NCBI GenBank assembly: GCA_036308615.1
Contig: JAXJVI010000099.1
Location: 1-39,748 of the forward strand
DNA: 39,748 nt
Direction: 5' to 3'
From: Acutalibacteraceae bacterium
Lineage (GTDB): Bacteria; Bacillota; Clostridia; Oscillospirales; Acutalibacteraceae
The translations under genes were made by a program, and so were the position numbers. This document shows, one piece after another, positions 1 to 32,533 of the stretch (position 1 is the stretch's first letter; each line of letters begins with the position of its first letter). A model generated the notes under the pieces. That model saw nothing but the letters and a program-made list of their open reading frames with translations. It did no database searches and had not been told where the DNA came from.

Positions 1-1067
1 ATATTAAGGTAGGTGTCAAGGTTTGAAAAATAAAGCCCCAGACGCTTTTCCAGCACGGCGAGCATAAGATTTAAGCGGTTGTAATCAAAGCCCGCCGAGG
101 TGCGCCTTGCGTTGCCGAAGCCGGTCGCGGTGACAAGCCCCTGTACCTCGGCTAAAATAGGTCTTGTGCCCTCCATAATGCAGGTAATGCACCCGCCCGA
201 AACATCGCTCATTCTGCCAGACAGCATCATTGCCGACGGATTTTCCACCGCGGTAAGCCCTGTTTCGGTCATTTCAAAAACGCCTATTTCGTTTGTCGAG
301 CCGAAACGATTTTTCATCGCCCTTAAAATTCTGCCCGACTGGTTGCGCTCGCCCTCGAAATACAGCACGGTATCCACAATATGCTCCATAACCTTTGGAC
401 CCGCAATATCGCCGCCCTTATTGACATGGCCGACAATAAATATCGGAATATCAAGGCTTTTGCCCGTTCTAAGGAGCAGATTAGTCGATTCCCTTACCTG
501 CACGATACTGCCGGGGGAAGAGGAGATGTCGCTGTGCTGCATAGTCTGAATGGAGTCGATAATCACAAGCCCCGGCTTTGCGGAATTTATATATTCGCAA
601 ACGGTTTGGACATCGGTCTCGGTCATAACAGACACTCGGTCGCTGTCAACCCCTATTCGCCTTGCTCGTAGCTTTATTTGTATAGCCGATTCCTCGCCCG
701 ATACATAAAGTATGTCGAGCTTGTCCTGCAAAGCGGAGCAGACCTGTAAGAGGATTGTGGATTTGCCGATACCCGGGTCGCCCGACAAAAGCACCACAGA
801 CCCCTTCACAATTCCGCCGCCTAAAACCCTGTCAAGCTCGGAAATGCCGGTTACAAACCTGTGCTCGTCGGCGGCGCTGATTTCGGAAAGCGGTCTTGCC
901 GAAAAGGTGCGGACAGGTCGGGGAGAGCTTACCGCCGCTTTTTGGGGCAGGCGCACATCCTCCTCCATAGTATTCCACGCTCCGCACTCGGTGCATTTGC
1001 CCATCCATTTGGGGCTTTCAAAGCCGCACTCGGTGCATACATATACCGTTTTGCTTTTTCCTGCCAT
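1..1067 (-). CDS. radA: DNA repair protein RadA/Sms (5' part; C-terminus beyond the left window edge)
   Basis: Absent from the ORF track because the frame runs off the window. My reverse-strand translation starts at ATG comp(1065-1067), preceded by GGGAG. It reads MAGKSKTVYVCTECGFESPKWMGKCTECGAWNT (C4 zinc finger), LSGDPGIGKST (Walker A) and RAMKNRFGSTNEIGVFEM (KNRFG motif). The + strand ORFs 100-1166 are antisense shadows. Confidence 0.92.
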   Translation of the reverse strand, partial: MAGKSKTVYVCTECGFESPKWMGKCTECGAWNTMEEDVRLPQKAAVSSPRPVRTFSARPLSEISAADEHRFVTGISELDRVLGGGIVKGSVVLLSGDPGIGKSTILLQVCSALQDKLDILYVSGEESAIQIKLRARRIGVDSDRVSVMTETDVQTVCEYINSAKPGLVIIDSIQTMQHSDISSSPGSIVQVRESTNLLLRTGKSLDIPIFIVGHVNKGGDIAGPKVMEHIVDTVLYFEGERNQSGRILRAMKNRFGSTNEIGVFEMTETGLTAVENPSAMMLSGRMSDVSGGCITCIMEGTRPILAEVQGLVTATGFGNARRTSAGFDYNRLNLMLAVLEKRLGLYFSNLDTYLN

Positions 1068-1083
1068 TTTAATTCTCCCATAT

Positions 1084-1797
1084 TTATAAGTTTTCTTCCG
1101 AATAAAAGTCTACTATTCCGCAAAAAATGGAAAACGCCATTTTCTTCTGGTATTCCTCATCCTTAAGCCGCTTTAGCTCGGCGGAGTTGCTTAAAAACCC
1201 GCATTCCACAAGCACTGCGGGAACGGTGGCGTTATAGAGAAGATAGGTACTGCTGGTCGCTTGCTTGTTGACCCGGGTGTTTTCGGGCTGTAAAAGCTGT
1301 ACAATAGATTTTTGTATGCAGTCGCCAAGCACTTTAGACTCAACATGTTCCGCGCTGTAAAACACCTGGGAGCCGTTTGCCGCCGAGGTTGTAAATTTGT
1401 TAAGGTGAATGCTCACAAAAACCGCGTTCGGGTTATCCTTCATAAGCCCTAAGCGGTTTTTAAGGTCGCTTTTTTTGCGGGTCGCAATCTTGTCGGTCTC
1501 AACATCGTCGGTTGAAACATCGCTTTCTCTGGTCATTATAACTCTAAAGCCGCTTTGCTTTAAGAAATCCTTTAGAGTAAGGGCAATCTTTAAATTTATG
1601 TCCTTTTCGACAGTTCCGTCAGCTGCCACCGCTCCGCCGTCAAACCCGCCGTGGCCTGCGTCAAGTATTATTACCTGCTGTTCCTTTACTGTAGCCCAAG
1701 CTGTTATATATTCATATCCCTTTGCTACCGCGGTGCTGAGTATTGCGAGGCACAAAACAACCGCTAAAATCACCGCAATTTTTCTTTTAAAAATCAC
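1084..1797 (-). CDS. cwlD: N-acetylmuramoyl-L-alanine amidase, CwlD-like
   Basis: 237-aa ORF with a GTG start and GGAG RBS. It has an N-terminal membrane anchor (IAVILAVVLCLAILSTAVA) followed by Amidase_3 signatures VIILDAGHGGFDGGA, VFVSIHLN and VLVECGFLSN. Confidence 0.8.
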   Translation of the reverse strand: MIFKRKIAVILAVVLCLAILSTAVAKGYEYITAWATVKEQQVIILDAGHGGFDGGAVAADGTVEKDINLKIALTLKDFLKQSGFRVIMTRESDVSTDDVETDKIATRKKSDLKNRLGLMKDNPNAVFVSIHLNKFTTSAANGSQVFYSAEHVESKVLGDCIQKSIVQLLQPENTRVNKQATSSTYLLYNATVPAVLVECGFLSNSAELKRLKDEEYQKKMAFSIFCGIVDFYSEENL

Positions 1798-1857
1798 ATT
1801 ATCACTCCAGTCGCTACTGTTTTTAAAATATGATTTTTTAAAGCGAGGTAGAACAAG
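1641..1857. repeat. Left copy of a 217-bp direct repeat (cwlD 5' coding end, RBS and upstream region)
   Basis: Aligns without gaps to 13381-13597 at a constant offset of 11740 bp. 1706-1788 is identical to 13446-13528 (83 bp). There are 4 mismatches in the next 60 bp on the promoter side and 16 mismatches in the 65 bp on the coding side. Confidence 0.95.
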
Positions 1858-2154
1858 ATAAATAATACAGTTAAAACAAAAACCACCGTGAAATGCAACA
1901 CTATTATTATAATCTAATTCCGCACTTTTTTCAATATCAAGAACGCAAAGATTTCTGATTACCTTGTTGATTTTTTCTTTGCGCTCGGCTTCGCTTGAGT
2001 CGGAGAGTACATTTGTTATTACATATTCGGTTTTAATGCTTTCTTGAAAACTGAAAAAAGTTTATGAACATTTTATATGCTGATGAAATTTATTCAAGTC
2101 GGCAAATAAATTTCTTGTGCAACAAACAAATAATCAAGAAAGAAGGAAACAACG

Positions 2155-2655
2155 ATGAAAAAGAAATATCATGTTGTGCTAACACCCGATGAACCCGAAA
2201 TAATTGCGTTCAAAAAATCTCTGCCCCAAGGCGAACTTAGTAAAACGGTTGCCACGATTATGACCGAGTCGCTGAAAGATAAGGTTGCCACAATCCCGAT
2301 GAATTTTGAAATCGAGCCGGTCACCAAAGATGTGCATACAAAAATGTCTCTGCCCGAAGAACTGGTGCAGAGGTTCTGCAAGAAGTTCGGATGTAAGAAA
2401 GGCAACCTCACCACCGCTATAAAATCGGAAATCAAAAAGTGTATTCGGAAGAATTTGTCATTTGAGCCGGACAGATATTTTTCGTCTGCAAAAGTTAACA
2501 GTATCTTCGGTCAAGTCATCAACCGTGTAAGCCAAAAGAAAAATTCTTTGGATGCAGGTGGCGAAAGAAGTAGGTCGATCGAAAAAGAATGGCTTAACGC
2601 ATTTTATGCAATGCAAAAAACCGTAAACGAAAAAAGGAACGAAAACAATGAATGA
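2155..2655 (+). CDS. Hypothetical protein, paralog of the next ORF
   Basis: 166-aa ORF with AGGAAAC RBS-like sequence upstream. It shares a collinear pattern with ORF 2648-3268: hydrophobic strand, acidic patch + II, KSLP, (S/N)KTV, ES, IP, then a basic helix (IKKCIRKN vs IIRRHIQVN). I recognised no known family. Confidence 0.6.
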   Translation: MKKKYHVVLTPDEPEIIAFKKSLPQGELSKTVATIMTESLKDKVATIPMNFEIEPVTKDVHTKMSLPEELVQRFCKKFGCKKGNLTTAIKSEIKKCIRKNLSFEPDRYFSSAKVNSIFGQVINRVSQKKNSLDAGGERSRSIEKEWLNAFYAMQKTVNEKRNENNE

Positions 2656-3268
2656 AAGAATTTTATTTATAAAACTTGAGCCTAAAACCGATGACGATAT
2701 TATCCGTTGGATGAAATCGTTACCGCCCCGAACAGTCAACAAAACTGTGAACGAAATTGTTTTTGCCGAGAGCCGAGATCAGACGGCTCGGATTCCTTAT
2801 AAAATTTCGTACACAAAAGAGGTTGAACCTCTTAGATGCCGACTTATTTTCAGAAGCAAAGCGGCATTGAACCTCTTATCGAAAATCCCCAAGGGCGAAT
2901 ACAAAGCAACATTGGTTAAAATAATCCGCCGCCACATTCAAGTAAACAAAACTCTGCCGCCGGCAACTTTTGAAGTTAACATTAAATATTTATCTATGGC
3001 GGTGGACTGCTTTGTAAAAGCCGTAAAAAGCAAAAGGTGGGAAAGCAAAGGCGTACCCCATAGGTTCGATAAACTTAATTCGTTTTATGAACTCGCATTT
3101 AAAGATTTTTCTAATACTGTTTTTGAATGCTACAAGTCTGTGAATAGAAATCACGGTGACTATAATCTGTATCACCTAAACTGCGAATACATTGTCAATA
3201 AAGCATTCGCCTCTGTGTTCGGAGAGATTTCTGTAACCGCCAATAAAGCTATGAACGAAAATTCGTAA
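2648..3268 (+). CDS. Hypothetical protein, paralog of the previous ORF
   Basis: 206-aa ORF overlapping the previous stop by 8 nt, which suggests translational coupling. The N-terminal ~100 aa are collinear with ORF 2155-2655. Its 3' end abuts the truncated nagA remnant. Confidence 0.6.
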   Translation: MNERILFIKLEPKTDDDIIRWMKSLPPRTVNKTVNEIVFAESRDQTARIPYKISYTKEVEPLRCRLIFRSKAALNLLSKIPKGEYKATLVKIIRRHIQVNKTLPPATFEVNIKYLSMAVDCFVKAVKSKRWESKGVPHRFDKLNSFYELAFKDFSNTVFECYKSVNRNHGDYNLYHLNCEYIVNKAFASVFGEISVTANKAMNENS

Positions 3269-4141
3269 GCGTCAAAAGTGATTGACACTACCTCTTCCAA
3301 AGAAACCCGCTCTTTAATTTATCTCAGCGACAATACTAACGGCATTTCAAATTTCAACGCATCAATCCTCGCCAAACGAGCTCAGAGTGATATTTTGAAT
3401 CTGTGGATGAAAAATAGGACATAAATGTACCAGCTTAGGTTGCCAGTACAACCGGTTTTGAAATATGAAATCCGTCACATATCAGTTGTGCGTAAATATG
3501 CTTTTCAAAAGCCGCACCTATAGGTCCGGGATTACGGTGGTGTAGCGGCGGCATAGCATTATAGGTGTGAGTAAGGCAGTTTGCACCGCATTCTATTGCC
3601 TTAATTGCAGTTTCATAATCGCAATCGGTATGCCCAATAGAGACAACACATTCGGGTGACACCGCTTTAATAAATTCCATACTGCCCGAACACTCCGGGG
3701 AAATAGTAATCATTTTAACATTTTTAAAACGCTCGAAATCCTTTACCGATGGGTTTTTAATATACTTTTCATTCTGTGCACCTTTGTGTTTTGGTGAAAT
3801 GTACGGTCCCTCAAAATGGAATCCCAAAATATTTGCACCCGCAAAATCGGTTTTGGCATTTGTCACTTTTTCGAGCACATCATATCCCATAATCATAGTA
3901 GTCGGAAAAAAGATGTTGTACCGTGTTCGGCGTAAAATTTGCACATCGGCTCAAAATCAGCGTCCATCGTGTCCATACCAATACAACCGTGTGTATGAAC
4001 ATCAATAAGTCCGGGAATAAGCCGTTTACCGCCTGCGTCAATATCTCCGTTATTTCGGTTACTTTCAACCGAAACTATTTTACCGCCGTTTATAACTACA
4101 CTTTTCAATTCACCGCTTATTAAAGCGTTATAAATTATCAT
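3269..4141 (-). pseudogene. nagA: N-acetylglucosamine-6-phosphate deacetylase, frameshifted and 3'-degraded
   Basis: The N-terminal ORF 3893-4141 contains LIPGLIDVHTHG and ends ...AEHGTTSFF-RLL*. The NagA sequence continues in another frame as FFPTTMIMGYDVLEKV...GFHFEGPYIS...SIGHTDCDYE. The shift lies in an A6 run at 3906-3911. The second frame stops at 3435, about 235 of the ~380 codons expected. Only degenerate NagA-like fragments (IKERVSLEEVVSITFDA, comp 3269-3319) follow. Confidence 0.85.
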
Positions 4142-4150
4142 TTTTACACC

Positions 4151-4861
4151 TTATTTCTCGCTGTAGATTACCGTAATATCGGGGTGAAGTTGCAAAATAG
4201 AAGCAGGAATTTCGGGAGTAATTGGACCGTAAAACGCCTTTTCCAAAATATCCCGTTTTGCTTCTCCGCTTGCAATAAGCAGAATTTTCTTTGCCTGCAT
4301 TATGGATACCATACCCATTGTTATCGCACGTTTCGGCACTTCATCTTGGTTTGAAAAAAAGCGGGAATTTGCTTTTATTGTACTTTCGTGAAGTTTAACC
4401 ACGTGAGTACTTTTTACAAAGTATTTGTCGTGTTCGTTAAAGCCGATATGCCCGTCAAGCCCTATTCCCAAAAGTTGCAAATCAATGCCGCCGAGTTTTG
4501 CTATATGCTCGTCATAACGCCTACCCTCTTCCGCCAAATCAACCGCACAGCCATTTGGAACAAAGGTGTTATTTATATCGATATTTATATGCTCAAAGAA
4601 ATTCTTGTTCATAAAGTAGCGGTAACTTTGGTCATTCTTACCGTCAAGTCCCACATATTCGTCCAGATTTACCGAGGTAACCTTACTAAAATCAACATCA
4701 CCCTTATTGTACCATTCAATAAGTTATTTGTAAATGCCAAGCGGTGACGAACCCGTGGCAAGTCCCAAAACGCTGTTCGGCTTTAATATTACCTGTGCCG
4801 AAATAATATTTGCCGCCTGACGGCTTAATTTTTCATAAGTATCAACCGTAATAAATTTCAT
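4151..4861 (-). pseudogene. nagB: Glucosamine-6-phosphate deaminase with an in-frame stop
   Basis: Reverse translation from ATG comp(4859-4861) gives [76 protein letters not shown]... The TAA is at comp(4724-4726). The remainder (ORF 4151-4654) carries GIGLDGHIGFNE. Confidence 0.85.
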
Positions 4862-5973
4862 TTTTCTTTAGCCTTTTCAAATTCACGCAAAACTATACCG
4901 TTCATTTTATCCCAAACTTTTTCCATATCAAAAACCAATTTAAACTGGGTTCTGCATCTGTCAAGATTATGATTTTTACGAGTGGTTTTAAAGTATGTAT
5001 CCCCCTCAAGATAATCGGTCAAAAAGCGCATACCGCACTCAAGGGTCATAAGTTTTGCACCTATCAGCAAGGAGAGTGCCTCTTTTCCGTCCATAGACTC
5101 ACCGCAGGCTTTTATGAAGCCCTCGGTGTAACTTTTAAAGAGTTCTAAGGAGAAATTGACCTTGCTTAAATAGGGTTCGTCCTCCGCACCTGTTGTCGCA
5201 CCGAATCGTATCGAATCGCCGTAATCGTAGGCTCTAAGTCCCGGCATTACGGTATCAAGGTCGATAACGCAAATTGTTTTCCCTGTATTTTTATCAAACA
5301 AACAGTTGTTTAATTTTGTGTCGTTATGGGTAACTCTTAGAGGAATTTCACCCTTTTTCAGCATATCGGTAAGAAGGGACATATCGCTTGTGTGAGCATT
5401 TACGAAGTCAATTTCCTTGCGAACAGACTTTGCTCTGCCGCAAATATCCGCACTAACCGCCTTTTTAAAGGTCTCATAACGCATAGGAGTATTATGAAAA
5501 TTCGGAATTACCTCGTGAAGTTTTTCGGCGGGAAAATCTGCAAGCAGATTCTGAAAATTCCCGAAGGCGTAACCGCAGTTATAAAAATCCTCGGGGCTTT
5601 CGATTTTTTCATAGCAAACAGTATCCTCGATAAAGAGATAACTACGCCATTTTTCGCCGTTTTTGTCGGTATAATAATTTTTTCCATCAACGGTAGGAAC
5701 AAGATTTAAGGTTTCCCTTAAAACATCGCCTCCGTGCTTTACTATTTTTTCCTTTAAAAATTCGGTTACATTTTCAATATTTTCAGTTAATGCATCGGTA
5801 TCGGGAAAAATATTGCTGTTTATCTTTTGCAAGATATACCGTGTTACATTGTTACCGTTTTTACATTCCACCTTGAATGTGGAATTTATATGACCGTTGC
5901 CGTGGGGTAAGACAGAATAAAGCTCACCATCATATTTAAAACTTGATACAACTCGATTTATCTGTTCATTCAT
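4858..5973 (-). CDS. nahK: N-acetylhexosamine 1-kinase-like phosphotransferase (APH fold)
   Basis: 371-aa ORF with HGNGHINSTFKV, YILQKINSNIFPD, catalytic loop LRVTHNDTKLNN, IDLDTVMPG and GDSIRFGA. From memory it resembles Bifidobacterium longum NahK/LnpB end to end. The stop overlaps the nagB start (ATGA). Confidence 0.75.
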   Translation of the reverse strand: MNEQINRVVSSFKYDGELYSVLPHGNGHINSTFKVECKNGNNVTRYILQKINSNIFPDTDALTENIENVTEFLKEKIVKHGGDVLRETLNLVPTVDGKNYYTDKNGEKWRSYLFIEDTVCYEKIESPEDFYNCGYAFGNFQNLLADFPAEKLHEVIPNFHNTPMRYETFKKAVSADICGRAKSVRKEIDFVNAHTSDMSLLTDMLKKGEIPLRVTHNDTKLNNCLFDKNTGKTICVIDLDTVMPGLRAYDYGDSIRFGATTGAEDEPYLSKVNFSLELFKSYTEGFIKACGESMDGKEALSLLIGAKLMTLECGMRFLTDYLEGDTYFKTTRKNHNLDRCRTQFKLVFDMEKVWDKMNGIVLREFEKAKEK

Positions 5974-5999
5974 ATAATTCCTCCGACAAAATTTAAATA

Positions 6000-7277
6000 C
6001 TATTTTTTATCTATATGATAAAGATCTTTTCCGATATCAAGGTTATCAAGAGTGTATTCATTGTCGGCAATATCAACACGCTCTGTCCATCTTCCGGCAG
6101 TAAAATCGGGAATGGCTACAGGGGCACCGCCCAAAGCGATAGAGTCCTCACTCAAAACCGATATACTCATATATGTTGCCGCATCATATACATCAATAGG
6201 AGCATGTGCACCTGTTTTTACTGCGTTTATAAAGGCATAAACGGTAAGGTGGTCGATTCCGCCATGTGCATCGTTTTCGATTTTGCCGCTTTTCCACAGA
6301 GGATGGAGATACTCCTCTTCAAACTTCTCAGCATTACCCCACATAGGTTTCCAGTTAAACTCATTCTTTTGGTGTTCCTCGTTACCGTCAATGAAGATAC
6401 TGTCGTTATCCTCCATATACATTCCCCTAGTTCCGTGAACTTCAAAGCGGCGGGAGTATCCTCTCGGCAGGCAGGTTTCAAGGGTAATGCAAACGGTCTG
6501 TCCACCGGCACAGGTAATAACAGTTGTTACCACATCGCCCTGTGAAAAATCCACCTTTGCAAGAGGATGGTCTTCGCCCTTTGTTTTTACAGTATACTCG
6601 TGCATACCCTTAGCACGGGAAGAAAATGACGAAAGGGTCAAAAACCTATTGCCGTTGTTAATATTGAGCAGTTTAGCAATGGGTCCTATTTCGTGGGTAG
6701 GATAGTTTTCACAGTTGCGGTAGATATAGTTTCTGAGTCGGTAATGACCGTTTTCAAGACCCTCAGTAACTTCCTTACGCAAATCGTGGCAATATGCACC
6801 GTTACAATGCATAATTTCACCAAACACACCCTGCCTTGCCATATTTAAAGCCATAAGTTCACGCTTACCGTAACAACAGTTTTCCATAAACATAAGTTCA
6901 GTACCTGTTTCTTCGTATGTATGAACTAATTTATAGCAGTCGTCTAAAGAATATGCTCCTCCTGCTTCAAGACCTACATATACGCCCGCTTTCATTGCGG
7001 CAACGGCAATCTCAACATGGGCTTCCCAGGAAACAGCAATATACACCGCATCAAGTCCCTCAAGTGACAATAATTCATTGTAGTCAGTTGTGACAAAAGG
7101 TTTTTTAGCACCTGATTCTGAAACTGCATCCGCCGCTTTTTCCGCACGGGCACTTATTACGTCGCAAACCGCAACAATGTCCACACCCTCGTCTTTCATG
7201 GGCATAAATACCCATTTCATCATATTGTAGCCGCGTCCGCCTAAACCGATTACACCGATTTTAACCCGGTCTTTCAT
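6000..7277 (-). CDS. Gfo/Idh/MocA-family NAD-binding oxidoreductase, possibly a GH109-like glycosidase
   Basis: Start chosen at MKDRVKIGVIGLGGRGYN (Rossmann GxGxxG) with an AAGGAG RBS 6 nt upstream. About 425 aa. The size and the hexosamine-gene context fit the NAD-dependent GH109 type, but that is an inference. Confidence 0.6.
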   Translation of the reverse strand: MKDRVKIGVIGLGGRGYNMMKWVFMPMKDEGVDIVAVCDVISARAEKAADAVSESGAKKPFVTTDYNELLSLEGLDAVYIAVSWEAHVEIAVAAMKAGVYVGLEAGGAYSLDDCYKLVHTYEETGTELMFMENCCYGKRELMALNMARQGVFGEIMHCNGAYCHDLRKEVTEGLENGHYRLRNYIYRNCENYPTHEIGPIAKLLNINNGNRFLTLSSFSSRAKGMHEYTVKTKGEDHPLAKVDFSQGDVVTTVITCAGGQTVCITLETCLPRGYSRRFEVHGTRGMYMEDNDSIFIDGNEEHQKNEFNWKPMWGNAEKFEEEYLHPLWKSGKIENDAHGGIDHLTVYAFINAVKTGAHAPIDVYDAATYMSISVLSEDSIALGGAPVAIPDFTAGRWTERVDIADNEYTLDNLDIGKDLYHIDKK

Positions 7278-7451
7278 AACATACTCCTTCGTAAAATAAT
7301 GTTTTTCTTTAATTATAATTAACAAATTTTACTTTTCAACAGAATTCCCGAACAATGTTTAAAATTAAATAATTACTGTCTAAATTCAAACAAAAAGTTG
7401 ATTTTTAGTATCAATATGATATAATTAAATCATAAAAATGGCGGTGGTAAT

Positions 7452-8285
7452 ATGATTTACGATAAAACTGATATATACCAATACAAACCCATCAACAGGT
7501 GCATTTGCATAAAATCAATATTTACCGGCATTGATGCTGATAGAGAAAAAGACTTCGTTTTTGACGGGGAATCCCACGATTTTTGGGAGGTTGTTTTCGT
7601 GTCAAACGGAGAAATCACCGCCACCGCCGACGAACGGATTTATAGTTTAAAGCAGGGTATGTTGCTGTTTCACAAACCAATGGAGTTTCATCGCCTTATA
7701 GCGGACGGTGAAAATTCTTCCCACCTGAAGATTATTTCATTCACGGCAGAGGGCAAACTTATGAAGCGTTTTGAAAAAAGATGCTTTAATCTGAACATTT
7801 CCGAACAGGACACATTTTCCGAAATTGCCGATTATTTCAGAATGGCATGTAATGCTTTTGAAGAGTCGCCCGAAAATTATGATTATCTTGCAAATATGGC
7901 GGCTACGCTGCTTGAAAGTTTCCTGTTAAGACTTAAAGAAAAGAGCGACTACACCCCAAAGCACAGTTCATATAATGAAGAAGTATATTATAGAATAGTG
8001 AAAACAATGAAGGATAACTGTTATAGGCAACTTACCGTAAGTGATATTGCAAATCTGCTTAATATGAGCGCCAGCAACATAAAAAGAGTTTTTGCGCTTT
8101 ACTCGGACATAGGCATTGCAAAATATTTTTTAAATCTCCGTATACGCCGAGCAAAGGAGCTGCTTCAAGAAGGTCTTTCTCCCTATGAGGTTGCCGAAAA
8201 GCTCGGCTTTAAACCCAACTATTTCTACACGGTTTTTAAACGGGAGGTGGGAATTACCCCCAATAAATATGCAAAATCAAATTGA
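7452..8285 (+). CDS. AraC-family transcriptional regulator (cupin-like N-domain + HTH)
   Basis: 277-aa ORF, divergent from the hexosamine genes. The C-terminal AraC HTH includes LTVSDIANLLNMSASNIKRVF and GFKPNYFYTVFKREVGITPNKY. Confidence 0.85.
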   Translation: MIYDKTDIYQYKPINRCICIKSIFTGIDADREKDFVFDGESHDFWEVVFVSNGEITATADERIYSLKQGMLLFHKPMEFHRLIADGENSSHLKIISFTAEGKLMKRFEKRCFNLNISEQDTFSEIADYFRMACNAFEESPENYDYLANMAATLLESFLLRLKEKSDYTPKHSSYNEEVYYRIVKTMKDNCYRQLTVSDIANLLNMSASNIKRVFALYSDIGIAKYFLNLRIRRAKELLQEGLSPYEVAEKLGFKPNYFYTVFKREVGITPNKYAKSN

Positions 8286-8473
8286 TAAGCATAATCTAAT
8301 TCTCTTATTACCGCCGTTAAATTGAATAGGCTATCCTTTTTGCAAGTTCGGATTTTTGCTTAGGATGGATGTTATTGCTTTAACGAATAAGGTAATGATA
8401 ATAAACTAAATAAGACAACTCGTAACAAATATTCTAAAACCACAGGTTGAAAAATTTATTAGATTCAAAGGCC

Positions 8474-8526
8474 GAAATGCCGATAGGATTTTGGGCGAGT
8501 GCCATCGAAAATCCTATCGGCATTTC
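8474..8526. repeat. Perfect 19-bp inverted repeat with a 15-nt loop
   Basis: GAAATGCCGATAGGATTTT (8474-8492) pairs with AAAATCCTATCGGCATTTC (8508-8526). It lies in a 476-bp non-coding gap between convergent genes, and no T-run follows on either strand. Confidence 0.8.
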
Positions 8527-8761
8527 ATCACGCTTCATAAACTGTCCTCCAAAAAATCATTGTAATTATATTTTGTCTCTTTTTTGAATTACTATACTGG
8601 GCGTACAGCATACATTAGGAGAATATAATACAAATAATAAATTAGAGCGTACAGGGGCGGTTCAAGTCTAAATGCTTTTGCTAAGGCGAAAGCAAAGAAG
8701 CGCCCCGATCATATTTGGTTGTTAATTTTATATAGTTGGAAAATTATAGATTGGTTAGGTG

Positions 8762-9673
8762 TTATTTATAAATAATATTTCCTTGACATTCAACATTACC
8801 TTCTATTATCTTGCACTCTACGCTGCCTCCGCAACTAACATCACCTTTGATATTATCACCGCAAGCAACATTATCTCCACAGTTTACAGCACCGTTTATA
8901 TTACAGGCACAAGAAATACTATTTCCGCAATTAACGCCACCGCTAATCGAACCTCCGCAAGAAATATTACCATTAGCGTTTACATCGCCGTTTATATCTC
9001 CTTGACAAGAGACATTGTCTTTACATTCTCTTATATCGCCGTTAATTTGATTACATTCTATTTTGCCGTGACTTACAACATCTCCGTTAATACTCGCATC
9101 ACAGCAAACATTTCCAAAGACCTCAACCTTAAAATATTGACGTGTAGTTTCATTGCAATCGTGAGGAAACCTGATGCTAATGCATTCATTAATATTGTCT
9201 GACTTATCTAAAATTTTTCTGCCTTTCGCAAAAACAACACGTAGCGTATTATCATCCGGCCAAGAGAATTGCGAAGAGCAATCTTCTTTATCTGTAACTT
9301 CATCTTTCAGCAAGTCTATTAAATGTACTGCTTGTTCATAGCCGATATTCAGTTTCCTTTGCAACAATGATGTAGAAACTGTACCGCTTTCTTTTATAAT
9401 TTTCATTGCTTCAGAAAAAACAGCGTCTTTTTTAGTATCGTTAACTCCCTTAGTCACAGACATTCTCGGCTCATTACCAAACAATTCATCTATGCTTATC
9501 TCAAATATATCGGCAAGCTTTGGTATTAAGCTAATATCCGGGCAACACTGTGCCGACTCCCATTTAGATACAGACTGATTGGTTACACCTAATTTGCCGG
9601 CAAGTTCCTCTTGTGTCAAGCCTTGCTTTTTTCTATAAAAACAAATGGTATCATTCAACTTCAAATTATCCAT
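8762..9673 (-). CDS. XRE-HTH protein with FtsK-gamma-like winged helix and a Cys-rich beta-helix-like repeat domain
   Basis: 303-aa ORF. The N-terminus is GLTQEELAGKLGVTNQSVSKWESAQCCPDISLIPKLADIF (XRE HTH). The middle is AVFSEAMKIIKESGTVSTSLLQRKLNIGYEQAVHLIDLLKDE (FtsK gamma pattern S.S.LQR...IGY..A..LID). The C-terminal ~140 aa hold about 16 Cys in short G-D/N-I/V-x-C repeats (bactofilin-like). Confidence 0.75.
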   Translation of the reverse strand: MDNLKLNDTICFYRKKQGLTQEELAGKLGVTNQSVSKWESAQCCPDISLIPKLADIFEISIDELFGNEPRMSVTKGVNDTKKDAVFSEAMKIIKESGTVSTSLLQRKLNIGYEQAVHLIDLLKDEVTDKEDCSSQFSWPDDNTLRVVFAKGRKILDKSDNINECISIRFPHDCNETTRQYFKVEVFGNVCCDASINGDVVSHGKIECNQINGDIRECKDNVSCQGDINGDVNANGNISCGGSISGGVNCGNSISCACNINGAVNCGDNVACGDNIKGDVSCGGSVECKIIEGNVECQGNIIYK

Positions 9674-9859
9674 AATTACACTCCTTTATATTTCTTGTAG
9701 CTACATTTACATTTTAAATGTTATGAGGTTGCAAATCAATAACGCATTTATTGGAATTTTCCAACTCCGAGTTGGATCGGATTTTAACATTATGCCGCCC
9801 ATATGAAATGGACGGCTACTTGTATATTGAATATACCAAGTATTATCTTGCAGTATTAA

Positions 9860-11020
9860 TTAACATACGGTGTCATTCCTATAGGTTTGACGCTTACCTT
9901 TATCGCTACTTTCTAATCGTTCTTTTAATGCGATAAATTCTGCATTATCCTTTAATCCTTCAAAACAATTTTCATTTAAGTTTAATAACAATTGCTCGCA
10001 TAATGTTTTATCAGAGTTTGTTGATACATTTTGAGGATTCCAAGTCAGTTTACTGAAAAAAATAGAATTGTATTTTTGCTCTCCTAAATTAGAAGCGTCA
10101 TCATAGTTTGCTGCGCATTTTTCCGACAGTAATAAATTTTTAACAACTAAATCATTTTCATTTTTTTGACAATAAAGCTTTGCTATCATTAAATAGTATA
10201 CTGATAGTTGGTTGTTGTAGAAATTTTCACTTTCATCATCGTAAAGCATTGTTTTGTTGAGGTTAATTGCAGTATCAAGCATTTTAATTCGTTGGTCAAC
10301 GCTTAATCCTTGCCGTAGTTCCTTATCACAAGCCATTAAATAAAGTATACTGGAACAAAAGTGAAGCATAAATCTCAGATTGTTTTGTTCTTGCTTTAAG
10401 CGTTCAGTTCCAGAATAAATATGGCTCAATAGCATTTCCTTACAAATTAGCATATTCGGCATATCTTCGGCGAGCTTAATAGCCGCTTCTTTTTTGTTCA
10501 TTTTGGGATATTCATAGCAAAGTATTTGTATAGCACTATGCCTGATACCATCAACCGTACAATCTTCTAATATTCTTTCACATAAGGATATTGCTTCTTC
10601 TTTAAATTTGTGCTCTTTGCGATATTCTTGTTGTTCTTTTGTTGCACCGTAAGAAACTAATCCATAAGCAAGATTTAACATCCATTGAAAATTACGTGGA
10701 TACAAATCAAGCACTTTACGCGACAACTCAATTTTTTCTAAAATTTTCCCTTTGCGTCCAAGTTCGTGATACTCTTTTTCGTATCTTCTTAATTCAGCTT
10801 CATTTTCACTTGCTTTTAAATCAAGCAACTCATCCGTACTTACACCAAAAAAGTTTGCCAATTTAGGCAATAGTGTTATGTCCGGCAGAGCCAAACCGTT
10901 CTCCCATTTGCTAACTGCTTGATAGGAGATATTAAGGTAATCCGCTAACTTTTCTTGGGTTACATCCTGAGATTTACGCAGTTCCTTTATTTTTTCGCCA
11001 ATCTTTAACATAGCATTCAC
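9860..11020 (-). CDS. XRE-HTH regulator with helical-repeat (TPR-like) C-domain, RNPP-like architecture
   Basis: 386-aa ORF. The N-terminus is VTQEKLADYLNISYQAVSKWENGLALPDITLLPKLANFF. The remainder is predicted all-helical and repeat-like. Confidence 0.75.
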   Translation of the reverse strand: MNAMLKIGEKIKELRKSQDVTQEKLADYLNISYQAVSKWENGLALPDITLLPKLANFFGVSTDELLDLKASENEAELRRYEKEYHELGRKGKILEKIELSRKVLDLYPRNFQWMLNLAYGLVSYGATKEQQEYRKEHKFKEEAISLCERILEDCTVDGIRHSAIQILCYEYPKMNKKEAAIKLAEDMPNMLICKEMLLSHIYSGTERLKQEQNNLRFMLHFCSSILYLMACDKELRQGLSVDQRIKMLDTAINLNKTMLYDDESENFYNNQLSVYYLMIAKLYCQKNENDLVVKNLLLSEKCAANYDDASNLGEQKYNSIFFSKLTWNPQNVSTNSDKTLCEQLLLNLNENCFEGLKDNAEFIALKERLESSDKGKRQTYRNDTVC

Positions 11021-11176
11021 TCCAAATATTTATTCAAAAGCGCTTTCTGATTATAGTATAAATCATAGCAGTTCAAATGTGTATAACATAACCGTTTACC
11101 TGTATGCAACCACAGGTTGAGCCGGTGTGTTCTATAAATGCCGTTCACCAAAGCAAACGGCATATTATAATTTAAT

Positions 11177-11593
11177 TTACTTATTCTTTACACAAGTATA
11201 TCTTTTAGCATCAAATTTGACTGTTATATCAACAACAGTAAAACCATGCTTTTTATAAAATCCAATAGCATCGTCATCGGTTTCAGCGATGATTTTACTG
11301 ACCGCAAATTTACTGAAAATGTAATCTATAAGCATACTGCCGATACCTTTTCCCTGATATTCGGGTTTTACGGCAATATCCAGTATTTCGGCGGTTTGCT
11401 CTTTTATTTTAAATACAATAATCCCTTTGTTTTCACCGTTATCCGTATAGGCGTATGCCTTTACTTTGTCGTCTGCTTGATACTTTTCCGCACGGCTTAG
11501 CAACCGCTCGGGAGTTGGGTTAAATACGCTTGGAGCGAGTAAAGAATAAACGCTTTTGTTGCACAAGGATTCTTTTACATCTATAATATTCAT
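11177..11593 (-). CDS. GNAT-family N-acetyltransferase
   Basis: 138-aa ORF with acetyl-CoA motif A: IAVKPEYQGKGIGSMLIDYI ... AIGFYKKHGF. Confidence 0.8.
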   Translation of the reverse strand: MNIIDVKESLCNKSVYSLLAPSVFNPTPERLLSRAEKYQADDKVKAYAYTDNGENKGIIVFKIKEQTAEILDIAVKPEYQGKGIGSMLIDYIFSKFAVSKIIAETDDDAIGFYKKHGFTVVDITVKFDAKRYTCVKNK

Positions 11594-11620
11594 TTAATCT
11601 TTATCCTTTTCAAGGCCCTA

Positions 11621-12040
11621 TTACAAAACATAACTTACAAAAGAACCGGCAATAGTATTATCCGGCATTTTGACAGGGCTGATTGCAAATTTGTTTTTCA
11701 ACCATAGACGATGTGATGGAATATTTCTGATATCGCAGTAAGCACGGACTTGATAGACTTTTTCTTCTTTTGCTATTCCGATAATCTTTTCTATCATTCT
11801 TGAGCCGATACCTTGTGAACGCAAATTGATATTTAAAACTTCAATTACATTAATAAATATTTCGCTTTGCTCTATCGGTGCCGGAATATCTCTTTTGAAT
11901 GCCCATAGAAAACCTATCATATTGTTATCAGTTTCGGCAATTATGAAATAACCGTTTTCACCAATAACATTCTTGGTATATGGATATGTTGTGATAAGTT
12001 GTTGCTTTTCTTTTTCAGTTCCAATTCGTATATTTACCAT
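11621..12040 (-). CDS. GNAT-family N-acetyltransferase
   Basis: 139-aa ORF with LRSQGIGSRMIEKII (Q/RxxGxG/A motif). It sits in tandem with the preceding GNAT. Confidence 0.75.
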   Translation of the reverse strand: MVNIRIGTEKEKQQLITTYPYTKNVIGENGYFIIAETDNNMIGFLWAFKRDIPAPIEQSEIFINVIEVLNINLRSQGIGSRMIEKIIGIAKEEKVYQVRAYCDIRNIPSHRLWLKNKFAISPVKMPDNTIAGSFVSYVL

Positions 12041-12161
12041 TTTTAAAATACTCCTTAATATCTACTACAAACTGATTTCCGCAGCGGGCAAGCTCGCCGA
12101 GGACACGGTCGATACCTTGTTCGGTTTTATAATCATTACTTTTGAAAGACCAAATTCAAAT

Positions 12162-12881
12162 TCAATCCTCACTATATTCATGCGGTTTTGCTTTATAATC
12201 TTTGGTGTGATATTTTTCGTATTTACTGCTTTTCGCATTTTCAAGTTCGGTATCATCACTGTAATCTATCGGTTCGGTACAAATAGCATCATTTAATATC
12301 TTCTCTAAATGTTCATATTCTGAAAACTTATCCAAAGAAGCCATCACCAAAGCATCTCTAAAATATCCTGAACTTTGCGCAATCAACTCTTGGTCGAAAT
12401 AATATCCATAATGCTCGACAAAGAAAGTCATTAGCATAACAACAATTCTTGTGTTGCCTTCCCTGAACGGATGTATCTGCCAAAGTTTGGAAAAATGACG
12501 AGCTATGAGCTTTACAAATTCGTCCTTACTTAAATCCTGCCATTTTATTTTGTTAATTTCTTTCCAAGCGTTATTTAATTCCTTTTCAACACTATCGCAA
12601 TTAGTATACCAAACACTCTTGCCTGCAAGAATATCTTCATGTTTTTGAATATTTATTACTCTAAACTTTCCTGCCCATTCATAAACATCTTCAAATAGTT
12701 TCTTGTGTATGAAAGCAATACCATCGGTTGTAAAGTCTGAAAAATCCGATTGATACATAAGCATCATCTTTGCTCGAGATAATTCAGCTTCTGCTAAATC
12801 AAGTTCTTCATCATCAGTAATATTTAAAATATTTTTTAATACATTGCTGTTATCGTATAAATATATATCATATTTAGACAT
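12162..12881 (-). CDS. Fic-domain protein (putative toxin) with a non-canonical active-site motif
   Basis: Start chosen at MSKYDIYLYDNSNVLKNILNI, comp(12879-12881). The Fic motif is HPFREGNTRIVV, versus canonical HxFx(D/E)GNGRxxR. Confidence 0.8.
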   Translation of the reverse strand: MSKYDIYLYDNSNVLKNILNITDDEELDLAEAELSRAKMMLMYQSDFSDFTTDGIAFIHKKLFEDVYEWAGKFRVINIQKHEDILAGKSVWYTNCDSVEKELNNAWKEINKIKWQDLSKDEFVKLIARHFSKLWQIHPFREGNTRIVVMLMTFFVEHYGYYFDQELIAQSSGYFRDALVMASLDKFSEYEHLEKILNDAICTEPIDYSDDTELENAKSSKYEKYHTKDYKAKPHEYSED

Positions 12882-13077
12882 TTGGCACCTTCTTATGTGC
12901 ATTAACAAGTAATTCTATCATTTGAGAATCCGAAATATTACCCTGCGCCCATTTTTCTGATAGCTCTTTAGCATATGTTGAAATAGGTGCCCCCTCAATG
13001 CTATTTATTGCGTCGGCAATTTTAACAGCTCTTTTTCGCTTTTGAATTTCCACAGGTGACATATTATCCCTCCTCAT
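12874..13077 (-). CDS. VbhA-like antitoxin (Fic inhibitory-glutamate peptide)
   Basis: 67-aa ORF overlapping the Fic start by 8 nt. RKRAVKIADAINSIEGAPIS aligns with the VbhA pattern ...A.AS..LEG..., and the (S/T)xxxE(G/N) spacing is one residue off. Confidence 0.6.
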   Translation of the reverse strand: MRRDNMSPVEIQKRKRAVKIADAINSIEGAPISTYAKELSEKWAQGNISDSQMIELLVNAHKKVPNV

Positions 13078-13091
13078 TATTACTTTATTAT

Positions 13092-13120
13092 ATTATACCT
13101 TTTAGGTAATGTTAAGTCAA
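13092..13120 (-). promoter_or_regulatory. Sigma-A-type promoter for the antitoxin-Fic operon
   Basis: On the minus strand: TTGACT (comp 13115-13120), 17-nt spacer, TATAAT (comp 13092-13097), about 15 nt upstream of the antitoxin start. Confidence 0.6.
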
Positions 13121-13297
13121 TATTGCTTAATTGGAATTTTTGAAAACTATTTCACGCGATTTGACTGATAACAATTAGTATCGTTGCATCACTATAACAT
13201 ACTTAAAGATTTTTTATGAATTTTTAACCCACTTTTAAAAAATAATTAAATTTGTAGGTTAATTTTGTTTTTGCATATTCAGTTGTCGTAAAATGGT

Positions 13298-13324
13298 GAA
13301 AACCCGCATAAACAGCGGGTTTTC
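13298..13324. terminator. 10-bp stem hairpin, terminator-like in both directions
   Basis: GAAAACCCGC-ATAAACA-GCGGGTTTTC. It lies just downstream (minus strand) of the 59-codon cwlD' ORF and upstream of the Fic module. Confidence 0.55.
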
Positions 13325-13359
13325 GGGGTGTTTTATATTGAATTTTCACGGCAGATTTC

Positions 13360-13537
13360 AGACCCAATCTGTAGTATTAACTAACCCGCCGTGACCTGCG
13401 TCAATAATTATTGTCTGCCGTTCGGTTACCGTACCGCCGACTGTGATATATTCATATCCCTTTGCTACCGCGGTGCTGAGTATTGCGAGGCACAAAACAA
13501 CCGCTAAAATCACCGCAATTTTTCTTTTTAAAATCAC
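13360..13537 (-). pseudogene. Displaced 5' fragment of a cwlD-like gene (59 codons)
   Basis: Reverse translation from GTG comp(13535-13537), with the same GGAG RBS as cwlD, gives MILKRKIAVILAVVLCLAILSTAVAKGYEYITVGGTVTERQTIIIDAGHGG-LVNTTDWV*. The amidase body is missing. Confidence 0.85.
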
Positions 13538-13597
13538 ATTATCACTCCAGTCGCTTCTGTTTTAAAAATATGATTTTTGAAGGACGGATAGAACATA
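13381..13597. repeat. Right copy of the 217-bp direct repeat
   Basis: See the left copy at 1641-1857. Confidence 0.95.
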
Positions 13598-13643
13598 TAT
13601 GAATTTTATAATGCGGCGGATATATTGCTTAAAGCTGATTCTA

Positions 13644-14576
13644 TTATAAGAAAATTGCAAACATTACGGGTATTGTAATAATTGAAATCAAATGAGAGAT
13701 TAGTGCCATTGAGGCCCCGGGAGTGGTGTCTCCTCCGTAGGCGGCGGGGAATACCACCGTGTTAAGACCCAGCGGCATAGCGGTGGCGCAAAGTGCCGCG
13801 CGTATAATTGCGTTATCGGTTTTAAGCGCCAATAAAACGAGCATAAACAGAGAGGGGAGGATTATAAGCCGGATAAGCGAGGCCAGGTATACCTTTTTGT
13901 CGCTCGCCAGCTTTTTAAGACTGTAGCCGCCTATAACAAAGCCGGTAAGCAGCATTGCGAGGGGTGACATACAGGCTCCCGCCGAGGAAATCGCAGAGGT
14001 TATGAATTTAGGTAACGGAACCGAACAGAGCCCGCAAACGGCTCCGAGAATTAAGGAAATGAAAATCGGGTTTACAAAGGTTTTAAGGCTCACTTTTCCG
14101 CCCTTATCGCTCGGTATAAGGGAGGCTGTGCCTATAGAATAGACATAAAGGTTAAGGGGAAGGGTGAAAATCATATAATCAAAGAGGATTTTCTCACCGA
14201 AGACGCCGAGCACTACCGCATTGCCCATAAAGCTGAAATTCGCCACCGCGAAGGAATATGTATATATTTTGCGAAGATAGCCGTCCTTAGCAAAGAGCTT
14301 TGCCAAAAAAACACCGATAACAAGTGACACTGCCATTACAGCCGTTCCGTACAGTATGTAAACCGATTTCTGTTTAAAATTTTCCACCGTGCAGTACTTA
14401 TAAAATACCGAGAAAACAAGGCAGGGTACAAAAAGATAGGTTTCAAGCTTGGAAAGCACCGTGGAGCTATCTTTAGGTAAGAGACCTTTTTTGTTTAACA
14501 TAAAGCCCAGCGCCATGAATATAAACAGCACCAGCATTTGATTGAGTGTTGCCGAAAAAACCTGCATAAAAAACAT
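13644..14576 (-). CDS. AEC-family (auxin efflux carrier / malate permease-like) transporter
   Basis: 310-aa polytopic membrane ORF with a typical AEC N-terminus (FSATLNQMLVLFIFMALGFMLNKKGLL). The start may be the MQVF codon 3 codons downstream. Confidence 0.75.
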   Translation of the reverse strand: MFFMQVFSATLNQMLVLFIFMALGFMLNKKGLLPKDSSTVLSKLETYLFVPCLVFSVFYKYCTVENFKQKSVYILYGTAVMAVSLVIGVFLAKLFAKDGYLRKIYTYSFAVANFSFMGNAVVLGVFGEKILFDYMIFTLPLNLYVYSIGTASLIPSDKGGKVSLKTFVNPIFISLILGAVCGLCSVPLPKFITSAISSAGACMSPLAMLLTGFVIGGYSLKKLASDKKVYLASLIRLIILPSLFMLVLLALKTDNAIIRAALCATAMPLGLNTVVFPAAYGGDTTPGASMALISHLISIITIPVMFAIFL

Positions 14577-14712
14577 CCTTATTATTATTTTGTTTGATTA
14601 TAGCACAACACAGATAAGCTTTTCAAGCACATCTATAAAGGTTTTTTAATTTCTTTTCAAAATTCCGGTTGATTATGAAAGAAAATTATAATATAATAGA
14701 TATAATAATGTC

Positions 14713-14742
14713 AGGCGTGACGGGTTCGACTCTCGTCAGCCT
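14713..14742 (+). other. tRNA-like acceptor/T-arm minihelix
   Basis: AGGC(G)TGACGGGTTCGACTCTCGTCAGCCT. The T-arm is ACGGG-TTCGACT-CTCGT with the canonical GTTCGA loop. It stacks on a 6-bp stem AGGCTG/CAGCCT with one bulged G. No D or anticodon arm lies upstream, where the sequence is AT-rich. Confidence 0.5.
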
Positions 14743-14758
14743 AAGGGCGGTGAAGCGT

Positions 14759-26389: not shown

Positions 26390-26848
26390 ATGTGGGAAAT
26401 AGATAACCTTTCTCAACTGCTCGGCTTTTTATATTCCGCCGCCTTGGGCGGCATTTACTGTATTGTTTACGATTTTCTGCGTGTGTTAAGAAAAGAAATT
26501 AAATTCGGTACAGCCGCGGTTTTTGTTTCGGATATTTTATATTCCCTTTTTTGCGCCGTCATCTGCTTTTGCTTTTTGCTTTCGGTAACGGGAGGTCAGC
26601 CCCGCGCCTTTGTTTTTGCCGGAGCGGCAGCCGGCTTTGCGGCAACAAGGCTTACGGTTTCACGCATTTTGTTTTTTGTACTTTCCAAAGCGTTAAGGGC
26701 AATACAGCTTATTTTTAAACAGATTTTGGCGCTTTTAAGCCGATTTTTCACCGTGATTACAGCGCAAACGGAGCTTTTGAGCAAAAAAGTTAAAAAAATA
26801 TGCGGTTTAACCTTAAATACTTTAAAAAAACACTTGAAAAAGAAGTAG
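26390..26848 (+). CDS. yabQ: Spore cortex biosynthesis protein YabQ
   Basis: 152-aa membrane protein immediately after yabP. Confidence 0.8.
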   Translation: MWEIDNLSQLLGFLYSAALGGIYCIVYDFLRVLRKEIKFGTAAVFVSDILYSLFCAVICFCFLLSVTGGQPRAFVFAGAAAGFAATRLTVSRILFFVLSKALRAIQLIFKQILALLSRFFTVITAQTELLSKKVKKICGLTLNTLKKHLKKK

Positions 26849-31515: not shown

Positions 31516-31523
31516 ATTAACAT

Positions 31524-31694
31524 AATCTTCAGGGCGGGGTGTGATTCCCCACCGGCGGTAAAGCCCGCGAGCCTTTTTGGTTGATTCGGTGAAACTCCGA
31601 AGCCGACGGTTACAGTCCGGATGAAAGAAGAATGTATATGTATTTGCATTTTTACGCCCTCACTTTCGTGGGGCGTTTCTTCTTTTTCTTTTAA
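31524..31694 (+). promoter_or_regulatory. FMN riboswitch (RFN element) with intrinsic terminator
   Basis: TCTTCAGGGCGGGGTGTGATTCCCCACCGGCGGTAAAGCCCGCGAGC...GGTGAAACTCCGAAGCCGACGGTTACAGTCCGGATGAAAGAAGA matches the RFN consensus. The terminator is ACGCCCTC..GTGGGGCGT plus a T-run (31654-31694). Confidence 0.92.
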
Positions 31695-32373: not shown

Positions 32374-32396
32374 AGTAACCGTAAAATTAAATATGT

Positions 32397-32533
32397 CCTT
32401 ATCAAGAGCGGCGGAGGGAATCGGCCCTGTGATGCCCGGCAACCTGATGGTTTTATCAAGGTGCTAATTCCGACGGATTATCCGAAAGATGAGGTTTTGT
32501 GCCGCTTGCCTTTCGGTGAGCGGCATTTGTTTT
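32397..32533 (+). promoter_or_regulatory. SAM-I riboswitch (S-box) with intrinsic terminator
   Basis: CCTTATCAAGAGCGGCGGAGGGAATCGGCCCTGTGATGCCCGGCAACC...GGTGCTAATTCCGAC...AGATGAGG matches the S-box consensus. The terminator is TGCCGCT..AGCGGCA plus TTTGTTTT (32500-32533). Confidence 0.92.

Follow-up and report, generated by a model that had tools for sequence, protein, structure and literature searches.

The cwlD locus and its duplicated 5' end

We analysed a stretch of 39,748 nucleotides (contig JAXJVI010000099.1 of the assembly GCA_036308615.1, an Acutalibacteraceae bacterium; hereafter the window), in which an island of 11.5 kb adjoins the sporulation gene cwlD and is bracketed by two copies of the promoter and 5' end of this gene. 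On the left, downstream of cwlD, lies the 5' part of radA (1..1068, minus strand), a gene that runs off the window; it was identified by its translation and by the RadA-type Pfam domains of the same gene in the contigs L001 and L004. The intact cwlD (1084..1797, minus strand) codes for 237 amino acids (aa) with a membrane anchor and an Amidase_3 domain: it matches Pfam PF01520 (Amidase_3) at 3.9e-47, has a hydrophobic N-terminus and scores 214.4 bits with the model TIGR02883 (spore_cwlD), whose cut-off is 221.55. At the other end of the island, a displaced cwlD promoter with the first 52 codons (13383..13597, minus strand, called as the open reading frame (ORF) 13358-13537 of 59 aa) adjoins the gene of an AEC-family permease (13644..14567, minus strand; Pfam Mem_trans), a native right flank that is followed by recJ. 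The synteny of cwlD with radA is common to the 80 species-representative cwlD loci, taken with flanks of 10 kb, that form our comparison set.

A repeat search within 1-16000 finds a single family of direct repeats (1643-1855 versus 13383-13595, 89% identity, spacing 11740), and the base-by-base comparison of 1641-1857 with the right copy gives 190 identical positions out of 217. The gapless alignment at this offset, with an identical block of 83 bp (1706-1788 = 13446-13528, the 83-bp core), had been described in an initial annotation of the window; it is confirmed here, with the coding-side limit corrected to 1643. Position 1642 is mismatched, and the repeat (213-217 bp, 1643-1857 and 13383-13597) is edged on this side by an 11-bp run, AACCCGCCGTG, at 1643-1653 = 13383-13393. 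The 16 mismatches counted earlier on the coding side (1641-1705) hold; on the promoter side four mismatches do fall within the first ~55 bp, but the whole of 1789-1857 contains 11. A GTG start and a membrane anchor are present in both copies and, as first annotated, read-through into a full amidase occurs from the left copy only, the right one being a 59-aa stub. The accessory interval between them (1858-13380) is AT-rich, again as annotated: its G+C content is 36.9%, versus 49.5% in the left flank and 46.7% in the right one.

An independent metagenome contig, ERZ27298610 k141_937766 (which corresponds to L002/L005), comes from a separate sample and spans both junctions collinearly without gaps; the junctions recur in several further samples. 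The structure of the island is therefore not an artefact of assembly, a doubt that had been raised at the outset.

Empty sites in the same species

Conspecific metagenome contigs were obtained by exact-protein look-ups. Three of them (L004, L008 and L009) show the permease gene directly followed by a full cwlD, which is the empty site that the initial annotation had proposed to look for. Over 1179-1788 and 13446-15022, L008 does not differ from the window: the coding-side arm of the left repeat (arm 'a') is joined in it through the core to the promoter arm of the right repeat, so that its sequence has exactly the form expected of a product of recombination between the repeats within the core. 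L004 and L009 carry the coding arm of the right repeat (arm 'b') inside a complete cwlD. They are identical to the window right of 13383 (over 3 kb in L004) and differ by ~2% left of the repeat, with their own single-nucleotide polymorphisms (SNPs) from 40 bp outwards. Because of these left-flank differences they are not simple deletions of a window-like chromosome; by their sequence, they look like the chromosome type that took the insertion. The island itself is nearly invariant among strains and the flanks differ by 1-2%, a pattern of recent spread that we count in favour of the explanation developed below. As a separate observation, recJ of L008 is ~12% diverged from that of the window (15676-17595) though the 1.6 kb beside cwlD are identical, which marks a sharp recombination boundary in this species complex.

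cwlD is split by large serine recombinase elements in related species

The closest species representatives have a CwlD 88-92% identical to that of the window. Among the 80 related species, 20 have an interrupted cwlD, with the break at one identical codon in all of them (HGG|FDGG; junction TAGTATTGGCTAACTCAGCC|CACGGCGGGTTTGA). Directly upstream of the cwlD 3' part, the ORF codes for a large serine recombinase (LSR): its domains are Resolvase, Recombinase, Zn_ribbon_recom and DUF4368, and its N-terminus carries the motif YVRLSSEDR; LSR homologs that are 73-97% identical adjoin the 3' part in 16 of the 20 interrupted loci. As the CwlD of such species is often just 50-75% identical to that of the window, the element moves between species. 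An ORF of 56-69 aa stands just upstream of the LSR gene in every locus with sequence available, and the cwlD 3' parts are still open reading frames; the order at this end is small ORF, LSR gene, P-O-B' junction and cwlD 3' part. The other cargo of these recombinase-bearing elements consists of regulators, toxin-antitoxin pairs and metabolic genes, with no phage genes; the LSR has no relatives in IMG/VR, and phage records reach at most ~40% identity.

Two side observations concern these loci. In L025 (700-1040) an internal deletion has reduced the recombinase gene to a C-terminal remnant, beside which the small ORF persists, and cwlD is still split; such a decay, unlike that of the window, would leave cwlD permanently broken. 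Between the species of L011-L035, CwlD is, unexpectedly, consistently better conserved than the N-terminal 356 aa of the adjacent RadA (e.g. 92% versus 74%), which may reflect the exchange of cwlD sequence along with elements.

The right boundary of the island

An element boundary of this kind, inside the coding sequence of the sporulation gene and at the conserved attachment (att) core, is present in the window at 13382|13383, where the sequence reads GGTCACGGCGGGTT|AGTTAATACTACAG after codon 52 of the displaced cwlD fragment. The right repeat is made up of the att core (13383-13393), arm 'b' (13394-13445), the 83-bp core (13446-13528) and the promoter arm p (13529-13597). Adjoining it, the P' arm of the element attachment site (13355..13382, minus strand; TTAGTTAATACTACAG in gene orientation) is the inverted repeat of the P arm TAGTATTGGCTAA (TAGTATT..CTAA) that adjoins the recombinase in relatives, which fits the two halves of a serine-integrase attP. 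The comparison with relatives thus shows 13382|13383 to have the make-up of a genuine LSR junction of the B-O-P' type, in which the native b-type cwlD promoter and 52 codons are joined to the P' arm.

The att core AACCCGCCGTG (CACGGCGGGTT in gene orientation, codons 49-52, HGGF) also occurs, identical, at 1643..1653 (minus strand), and its position is that of the element/cwlD junction in the 20 species. There it belongs to an intact attB-like site (~1643-1653) within the complete 237-aa cwlD, so B-O-P' (13355-13393) is the sole hybrid site of the window. The initial annotation had taken the 83-bp core for the att site and the point of crossover; judging from the codon at which the gene is split in 20 species, the attachment site is instead the 11-bp AACCCGCCGTG at the coding-side edge of the repeat, 13383-13393 in the right copy.

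Eight further conspecific 5' stubs (P0014-P0021), all with the b arm and still open, break off at this HGG codon as well, and the P' arms that follow them vary slightly. Since these stubs lead into other elements, including that of L091, cwlD is a hot spot in the species of the window too. Near the right end of the island a hairpin search found a terminator-like hairpin (13297..13325, plus strand); the ~100-bp end segment that contains it is also found in L091, which carries at the same site a different element with which the island has nothing else in common.

No Pfam match to a recombinase or transposase family was obtained for any island ORF, with no Resolvase or Recombinase domain among them, and tblastn with five LSRs from related elements against the whole window found none (best E = 1.1). 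The absence of such a gene from the island, noted at first sight, is therefore upheld, as is the suggestion that the recombinase was lost: relatives carry the LSR where the window has a replacement cwlD 5' end.

The left end: small-ORF remnant and replacement promoter

Beside the left repeat, tblastn and blastn detect the remnant of a small ORF devoid of a start codon (1879..2037, minus strand); in related elements this ORF, a candidate directionality factor, precedes the LSR gene. Over 2034-1882 it is 71% identical across 51 aa to the small ORF of L031 (tblastn), and blastn gives 77-89% with L015, L016, L031, L035 and L060. Homology to the LSR-bearing elements stops at GCATTTCACGG: beyond this point the elements enter the recombinase gene, whereas the window enters a 21-bp linker 'u' (1858..1878, minus strand), then the cwlD promoter and a full 5' end. 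The linker is common to L092 and L015 (86%) and absent from recombinase-bearing elements. The same joint of small ORF, linker, promoter and intact cwlD is found in L092, whose genome is ~92% identical to the window along radA-cwlD, as well as in L015, L011 and L012; it was therefore formed before reaching the chromosome of the window, or it has spread.

The remnant contains a sigma-70-like promoter (1906..1934, minus strand; TTGAAA-17-TATAAT, 11 of 12 consensus matches) that is conserved in the alignment. In relatives it stands just upstream of the recombinase gene; in the window it is directed at cwlD, ~110 nt before the start codon, and could, from its sequence, give non-sporulation transcription of this gene. 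Two other candidates at this place were discarded. The conserved 160-nt block 1886-2045 is no known RNA, as Rfam returned no family in 1-15000 at E<=1 (the gathering matches in the whole window being FMN and SAM riboswitches elsewhere), and corresponds to the small-ORF remnant; the joint GCATTTCACGG|TGGTTTTTG bears a suggestive resemblance to CACGGCGGGTTT, which is too weak to claim a pseudo-att site of the LSR.

Mosaic structure of the left repeat

The three parts of the left repeat differ in their affinities. Its coding arm 'a' (1654..1705, minus strand; ITAWATVKEQQVIIL) is of imported type, being 98% identical to L092 and 72% to the conspecific L004, with informative sites of the F type. 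The 83-bp core, which encodes the membrane anchor (1706..1788, minus strand), is native, with 100% identity to the right copy and to L004 and 87% to L092. The promoter arm p', together with the start codon and codon 3 (1789..1857, minus strand), follows the imported clade consensus: 93% with L092, 91% with L015 and 84% with the native p arm. Further out, the small ORF is 87% identical to L092 versus 25% to L004, and the cwlD 3' part is 88-94% identical to L092 versus 98% to L004. The informative sites are accordingly foreign over 1789-1860, native over 1720-1768, foreign over 1654-1705 and native from 1648 leftwards. The right copy is native throughout, identical over its full length to the empty-site alleles of L004 and L009. 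At the protein level, arm 'b' of the right copy reads ITVGGTVTERQ and arm 'a' of the left copy ITAWATVKEQQ.

These affinities reverse the assignment of the arms in the initial annotation: arm 'b' is that of L004, L009 and the eight stubs, and it is the left copy whose coding arm and promoter side resemble L092. They also go against the single Campbell-type crossover proposed there, which predicts that both copies are two-part hybrids with reciprocal breakpoints. With a foreign-native-foreign left copy and an all-native right copy, no single crossover gives the pattern.

Divergence is 16-25% between the arms of the repeat and 13-22% over the same 83 bp in L092, L015 and L011, so that 83 identical bases are not expected by descent (a chance of roughly 1e-5 to 1e-8). 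On the alignments, the most fitting reading of the core is a tract of gene conversion or crossover between the two copies. In the strain L093 the left junction is the same and the tract limits are different, in support of a continuing exchange. The locus shows that long att-like flanking repeats with an identical core can arise by gene conversion and need not mark integration crossovers.

Origin of the island

Taken together, we consider with a probability of about 70% that the island is a decayed, immobilised and recombinase-less member of the LSR element family that inserts in cwlD at CACGGCGGGTT (HGGF, codons 49-52). The window has no LSR, no second hybrid att site and no broken cwlD because an imported promoter and a complete 5' end occupy the recombinase end. 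The surrogate gene end foreseen by the initial annotation is indeed there, the imported arm and promoter of the left copy being continuous with the complete gene and the right copy being a native stub. An LSR element would first have integrated into a native b-type cwlD; its recombinase end would then have been replaced, possibly by homologous recombination with DNA carrying the joint of small ORF, promoter and 5' end, unless the element arrived with a pre-formed replacement end. Gene conversion between the two diverged 5' ends would later have made the core identical. Site-specific excision of such an island would no longer take place, and RecA-type recombination between the repeats would be its only way out of the chromosome. 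Intact members of the family, judging by the analogy of skin and SPbeta, are probably excised in the mother cell, a step that the version of the window would bypass. Their B-O-P' end should be a cwlD 5' stub ending in HGG and joined to a TTA..TAATACTA arm, and their excision would rebuild cwlD as ...GACGCAGGNCACGGCGGGTTTGACGG, together with a circular P-O-P' junction.

Several points weigh against this explanation. A pattern search found no DAGHGG-coding 5' stub within 10 kb of the 20 interrupted loci; every one of them has its 5' fragment farther off than the 10-kb flanks, and no complete LSR element with both ends was recovered. No LSR-bearing copy was seen in the species of the window, and neither IMG/VR nor the JGI metagenomes contain the exact P-O-P' pattern spanning attP; the core 27-mer is likewise absent from JGI metagenomes. 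On the left, the imported arm ends between 1648 and 1654, in the invariant DAGHGG codons, a position that cannot tell a site-specific from a homologous join. Arm 'a' could be an old native allele, since both arm types occur naturally in related species. The proposed order of events is one that we infer. The developmental excision of intact members, finally, is a plausible analogy, made so by the cwlD 3' parts and conspecific 5' stubs that are still open and by the need of CwlD for an N-terminal membrane domain at mother-cell-derived membranes.

Four other histories have to be weighed. A recombinase-less circle carrying a diverged cwlD 5' fragment (b arm, core and p') might have entered an a-type, L008-like recipient by one Campbell-type crossover in the core: L008 matches the window on both sides of the core, as the exact pre-insertion site that this history also predicts, and 83 bp of identity suffice for a RecA-mediated crossover. 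However, in its b arm and core the right copy matches the L004/L009 alleles, and the stubs joined to other elements, at 100%, whereas the p' arm, on the same supposed 217-bp fragment, is 16% diverged, so that the incoming fragment would have to be a native/foreign chimera; moreover the right copy stops exactly at the LSR crossover used in 20 species, and the left copy, compared with L092 and L004, is foreign-native-foreign and not a two-part hybrid. We regard such a circle as unlikely. A mobilisable satellite, relying on the LSR that a co-resident cwlD element supplies in trans and bringing its surrogate 5' end in the B-O-P' site, is suggested by the imported sequence that fills the interval between the two copies of the 11-bp att core, by the several different elements that use the cwlD site in the same species, and by the conservation of the LSR across species (91-97%). 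Yet the left junction is an intact attB-like site and not P-O-B', and no LSR is encoded in the 39.7 kb of the window. The pairs recombined by large serine integrases are attP and attB or, given a directionality factor, attL and attR; they are not known to act on attL and attB. As there is no attL/attR pair to excise, a satellite is quite improbable.

The occupied arrangement could also be ancestral, the repeat being an old local duplication and all empty sites deletions, with no site-specific insertion in the lineage. Small-ORF remnants are indeed present upstream of cwlD in the sister species L011, L012, L013, L015 and L092, and the native p arm has changes found in no relative. An old duplication agrees poorly with an island of 37% G+C between flanks of 47-50%, with its near-invariance among strains whose flanks differ by 1-2%, and with the conserved P' arm at the right boundary; besides, the b-type empty sites have their own SNPs immediately left of the repeat and are not simple deletions. 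We judge this history very improbable. An error of assembly or binning is scarcely credible: the sources are metagenome assemblies, in which repeats can be mis-joined, but k141_937766 crosses both junctions collinearly and these recur in further samples.

Compared with the decay of an LSR element at this one locus, a broader proposal is more speculative, and we advance it tentatively: cwlD would be an undescribed and common target of developmentally excised LSR elements in gut Oscillospirales (in about a quarter of the sampled species), and the window would illustrate an escape route in which a portable cassette of promoter and 5' end, present in at least five species, replaces the recombinase end, repairs cwlD for good and fixes the cargo island.

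Gene content of the island

Next to the left junction, unkA and unkB (2155-2655 and 2648-3268, plus strand) have no Pfam, PHROG or NCBIfam match and are conserved backbone genes of the element family. The pair occurs, along with a Fic gene, in the LSR-bearing element of L060, and it is also present in L099/L100; unkB has 238 homologs. The initial annotation saw in them a paralog pair that might encode the missing recombinase. The similarity is weak (35% over 48 aa, E = 1e-5 in a single comparison), and the role is not supported: the pair shows no recombinase features and, in related elements, accompanies a genuine serine recombinase. With unkB, tried as a hidden recombinase, a profile search of the PDB gave noise at E~0.1; its AlphaFold 2 (AF2) model is poor (pLDDT 65, pTM 0.44) and has no Foldseek match in PDB below E=1. 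The pair is also found in other mobile elements, one of them with a different serine recombinase: in L100 (5073-10591) the unkA-unkB module accompanies a 502-aa serine recombinase and a 55-aa ORF, adjoining the fumarase and SipL genes, which suggests a wider element family with other targets.

The cargo starts with genes identified by Pfam: a nagA pseudogene (3435-4141), nagB with the stop codon Q46stop read in the sequence (4151-4861), an APH-like kinase (4858-5973), a GH109 glycosidase (6000-7325) and an AraC regulator (7452-8285, plus strand). On the minus strand follow, by Pfam and PHROG, an HTH_3/FtsK_gamma protein (8762-9673), an HTH_3 protein of 386 aa (9860-11020), two GNAT acetyltransferases (11177-11593 and 11621-12040), a Fic toxin (12162-12908) and its VbhA antitoxin (12874-13077). 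In both the window and L002, nagA is in pieces of 82 aa and ~153-169 aa and misses its C-terminal third, apparently truncated where the unkA/unkB module starts. The nagB region (4051-4861) forms a patch ~15% diverged (~118 substitutions, no indels) from the L001/L002 allele, the remaining island being essentially identical among strains. The Xre-type genes (8762-11020) have homologs of 78-92% nucleotide identity directly upstream of intact cwlD in distant species (L057 7511-9881, L059 8868-9862), whose CwlD is merely ~47% identical; one of the two has an unusual architecture, HTH_3 and FtsK_gamma followed by Cys/Gly/Asn-rich bactofilin-like repeats.

Outside the island, the FMN and SAM riboswitches (31521-31636 and 32396-32495) and the gene of the spore-cortex protein YabQ (26390-26848) belong to the ordinary chromosomal part of the window. 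A GC-skew minimum near 13 kb was rejected as a replication origin, as it tracks a switch of gene orientation.

Relation to known systems and significance

Elements that interrupt sporulation genes are known from several spore-formers. Two of them, skin in sigK of B. subtilis (skinCd in C. difficile) and SPbeta in spsM, are removed by SpoIVCA or SprA, both large serine recombinases, acting with a directionality factor (PMC4191935, PMC5499854, PMC5025042); a gin element lies in gerE of B. cereus ATCC 10987 (PMC5595907), and a yin element in yabG of C. botulinum (PMC10747680). The cwlD elements of relatives resemble skin and SPbeta in that they sit inside a sporulation gene acting from the mother-cell side, with an LSR beside one junction, a small ORF just upstream of it as in the sprB-sprA arrangement, and short att cores with inverted-repeat arms. 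They differ by their target, cwlD, which is not named as a target in any of the papers retrieved, and the copy of the window differs further by having no recombinase, one hybrid att site and an intact target gene, for which reason it cannot act as an excision switch. Like gin and yin, which are not, or only in part, prophage-like, the cwlD elements carry regulators, toxin-antitoxin and metabolic cargo in place of phage genes, and IMG/VR contains no relatives of the cwlD elements; unlike gin and yin, they have another target, another recombinase lineage and another host clade (uncultured Acutalibacteraceae/Oscillospirales), and the window copy is fixed in place.

The replacement of a gene end has a counterpart in phage 21 and e14 of E. 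coli, which integrate in icd, bring a diverged replacement of its 3' end within attP and encode their own tyrosine integrase. There too, the element lies between diverged copies of a gene end, of which the imported one serves the functional gene and the native one is left over as a stub. In the window, by contrast, it is the 5' end and promoter that are replaced, no integrase is present, and the replacement end sits in the place of the lost recombinase; intact cwlD elements have the LSR gene, not a cwlD 5' end, beside the P arm, so that the native mode of the family is to split the gene. With cryptic or defective prophages and integrase-less islands, the island shares the loss of the recombinase, cargo pseudogenes (nagA, nagB), a toxin-antitoxin pair and a loss that would proceed only by homologous recombination of the flanking repeats; where a simple att duplication would be expected, however, it has a pair of diverged gene 5' ends marked by a gene-conversion tract. 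No paper linking cwlD with intervening elements or serine recombinases came up in full-text searches. The island appears to be the decayed, fixed form of a known type of system, whose parent family of cwlD elements appears undescribed and common in the clade.

CwlD needs its N-terminal membrane domain, acts at mother-cell-derived membranes and makes the muramic-lactam mark required by cortex-lytic enzymes, by which it gates spore germination (PMC8496864). With a mobile element in the cwlD of about one in four of the Acutalibacteraceae species sampled, the ability of abundant, uncultured gut spore-formers to germinate would depend on a site-specific excision. The few sporulation-gene rearrangements on record would also gain, with the cwlD family, a new target and a new recombinase/att pair. 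The window illustrates how such an element may be immobilised while its glycan-use and toxin-antitoxin cargo is retained.

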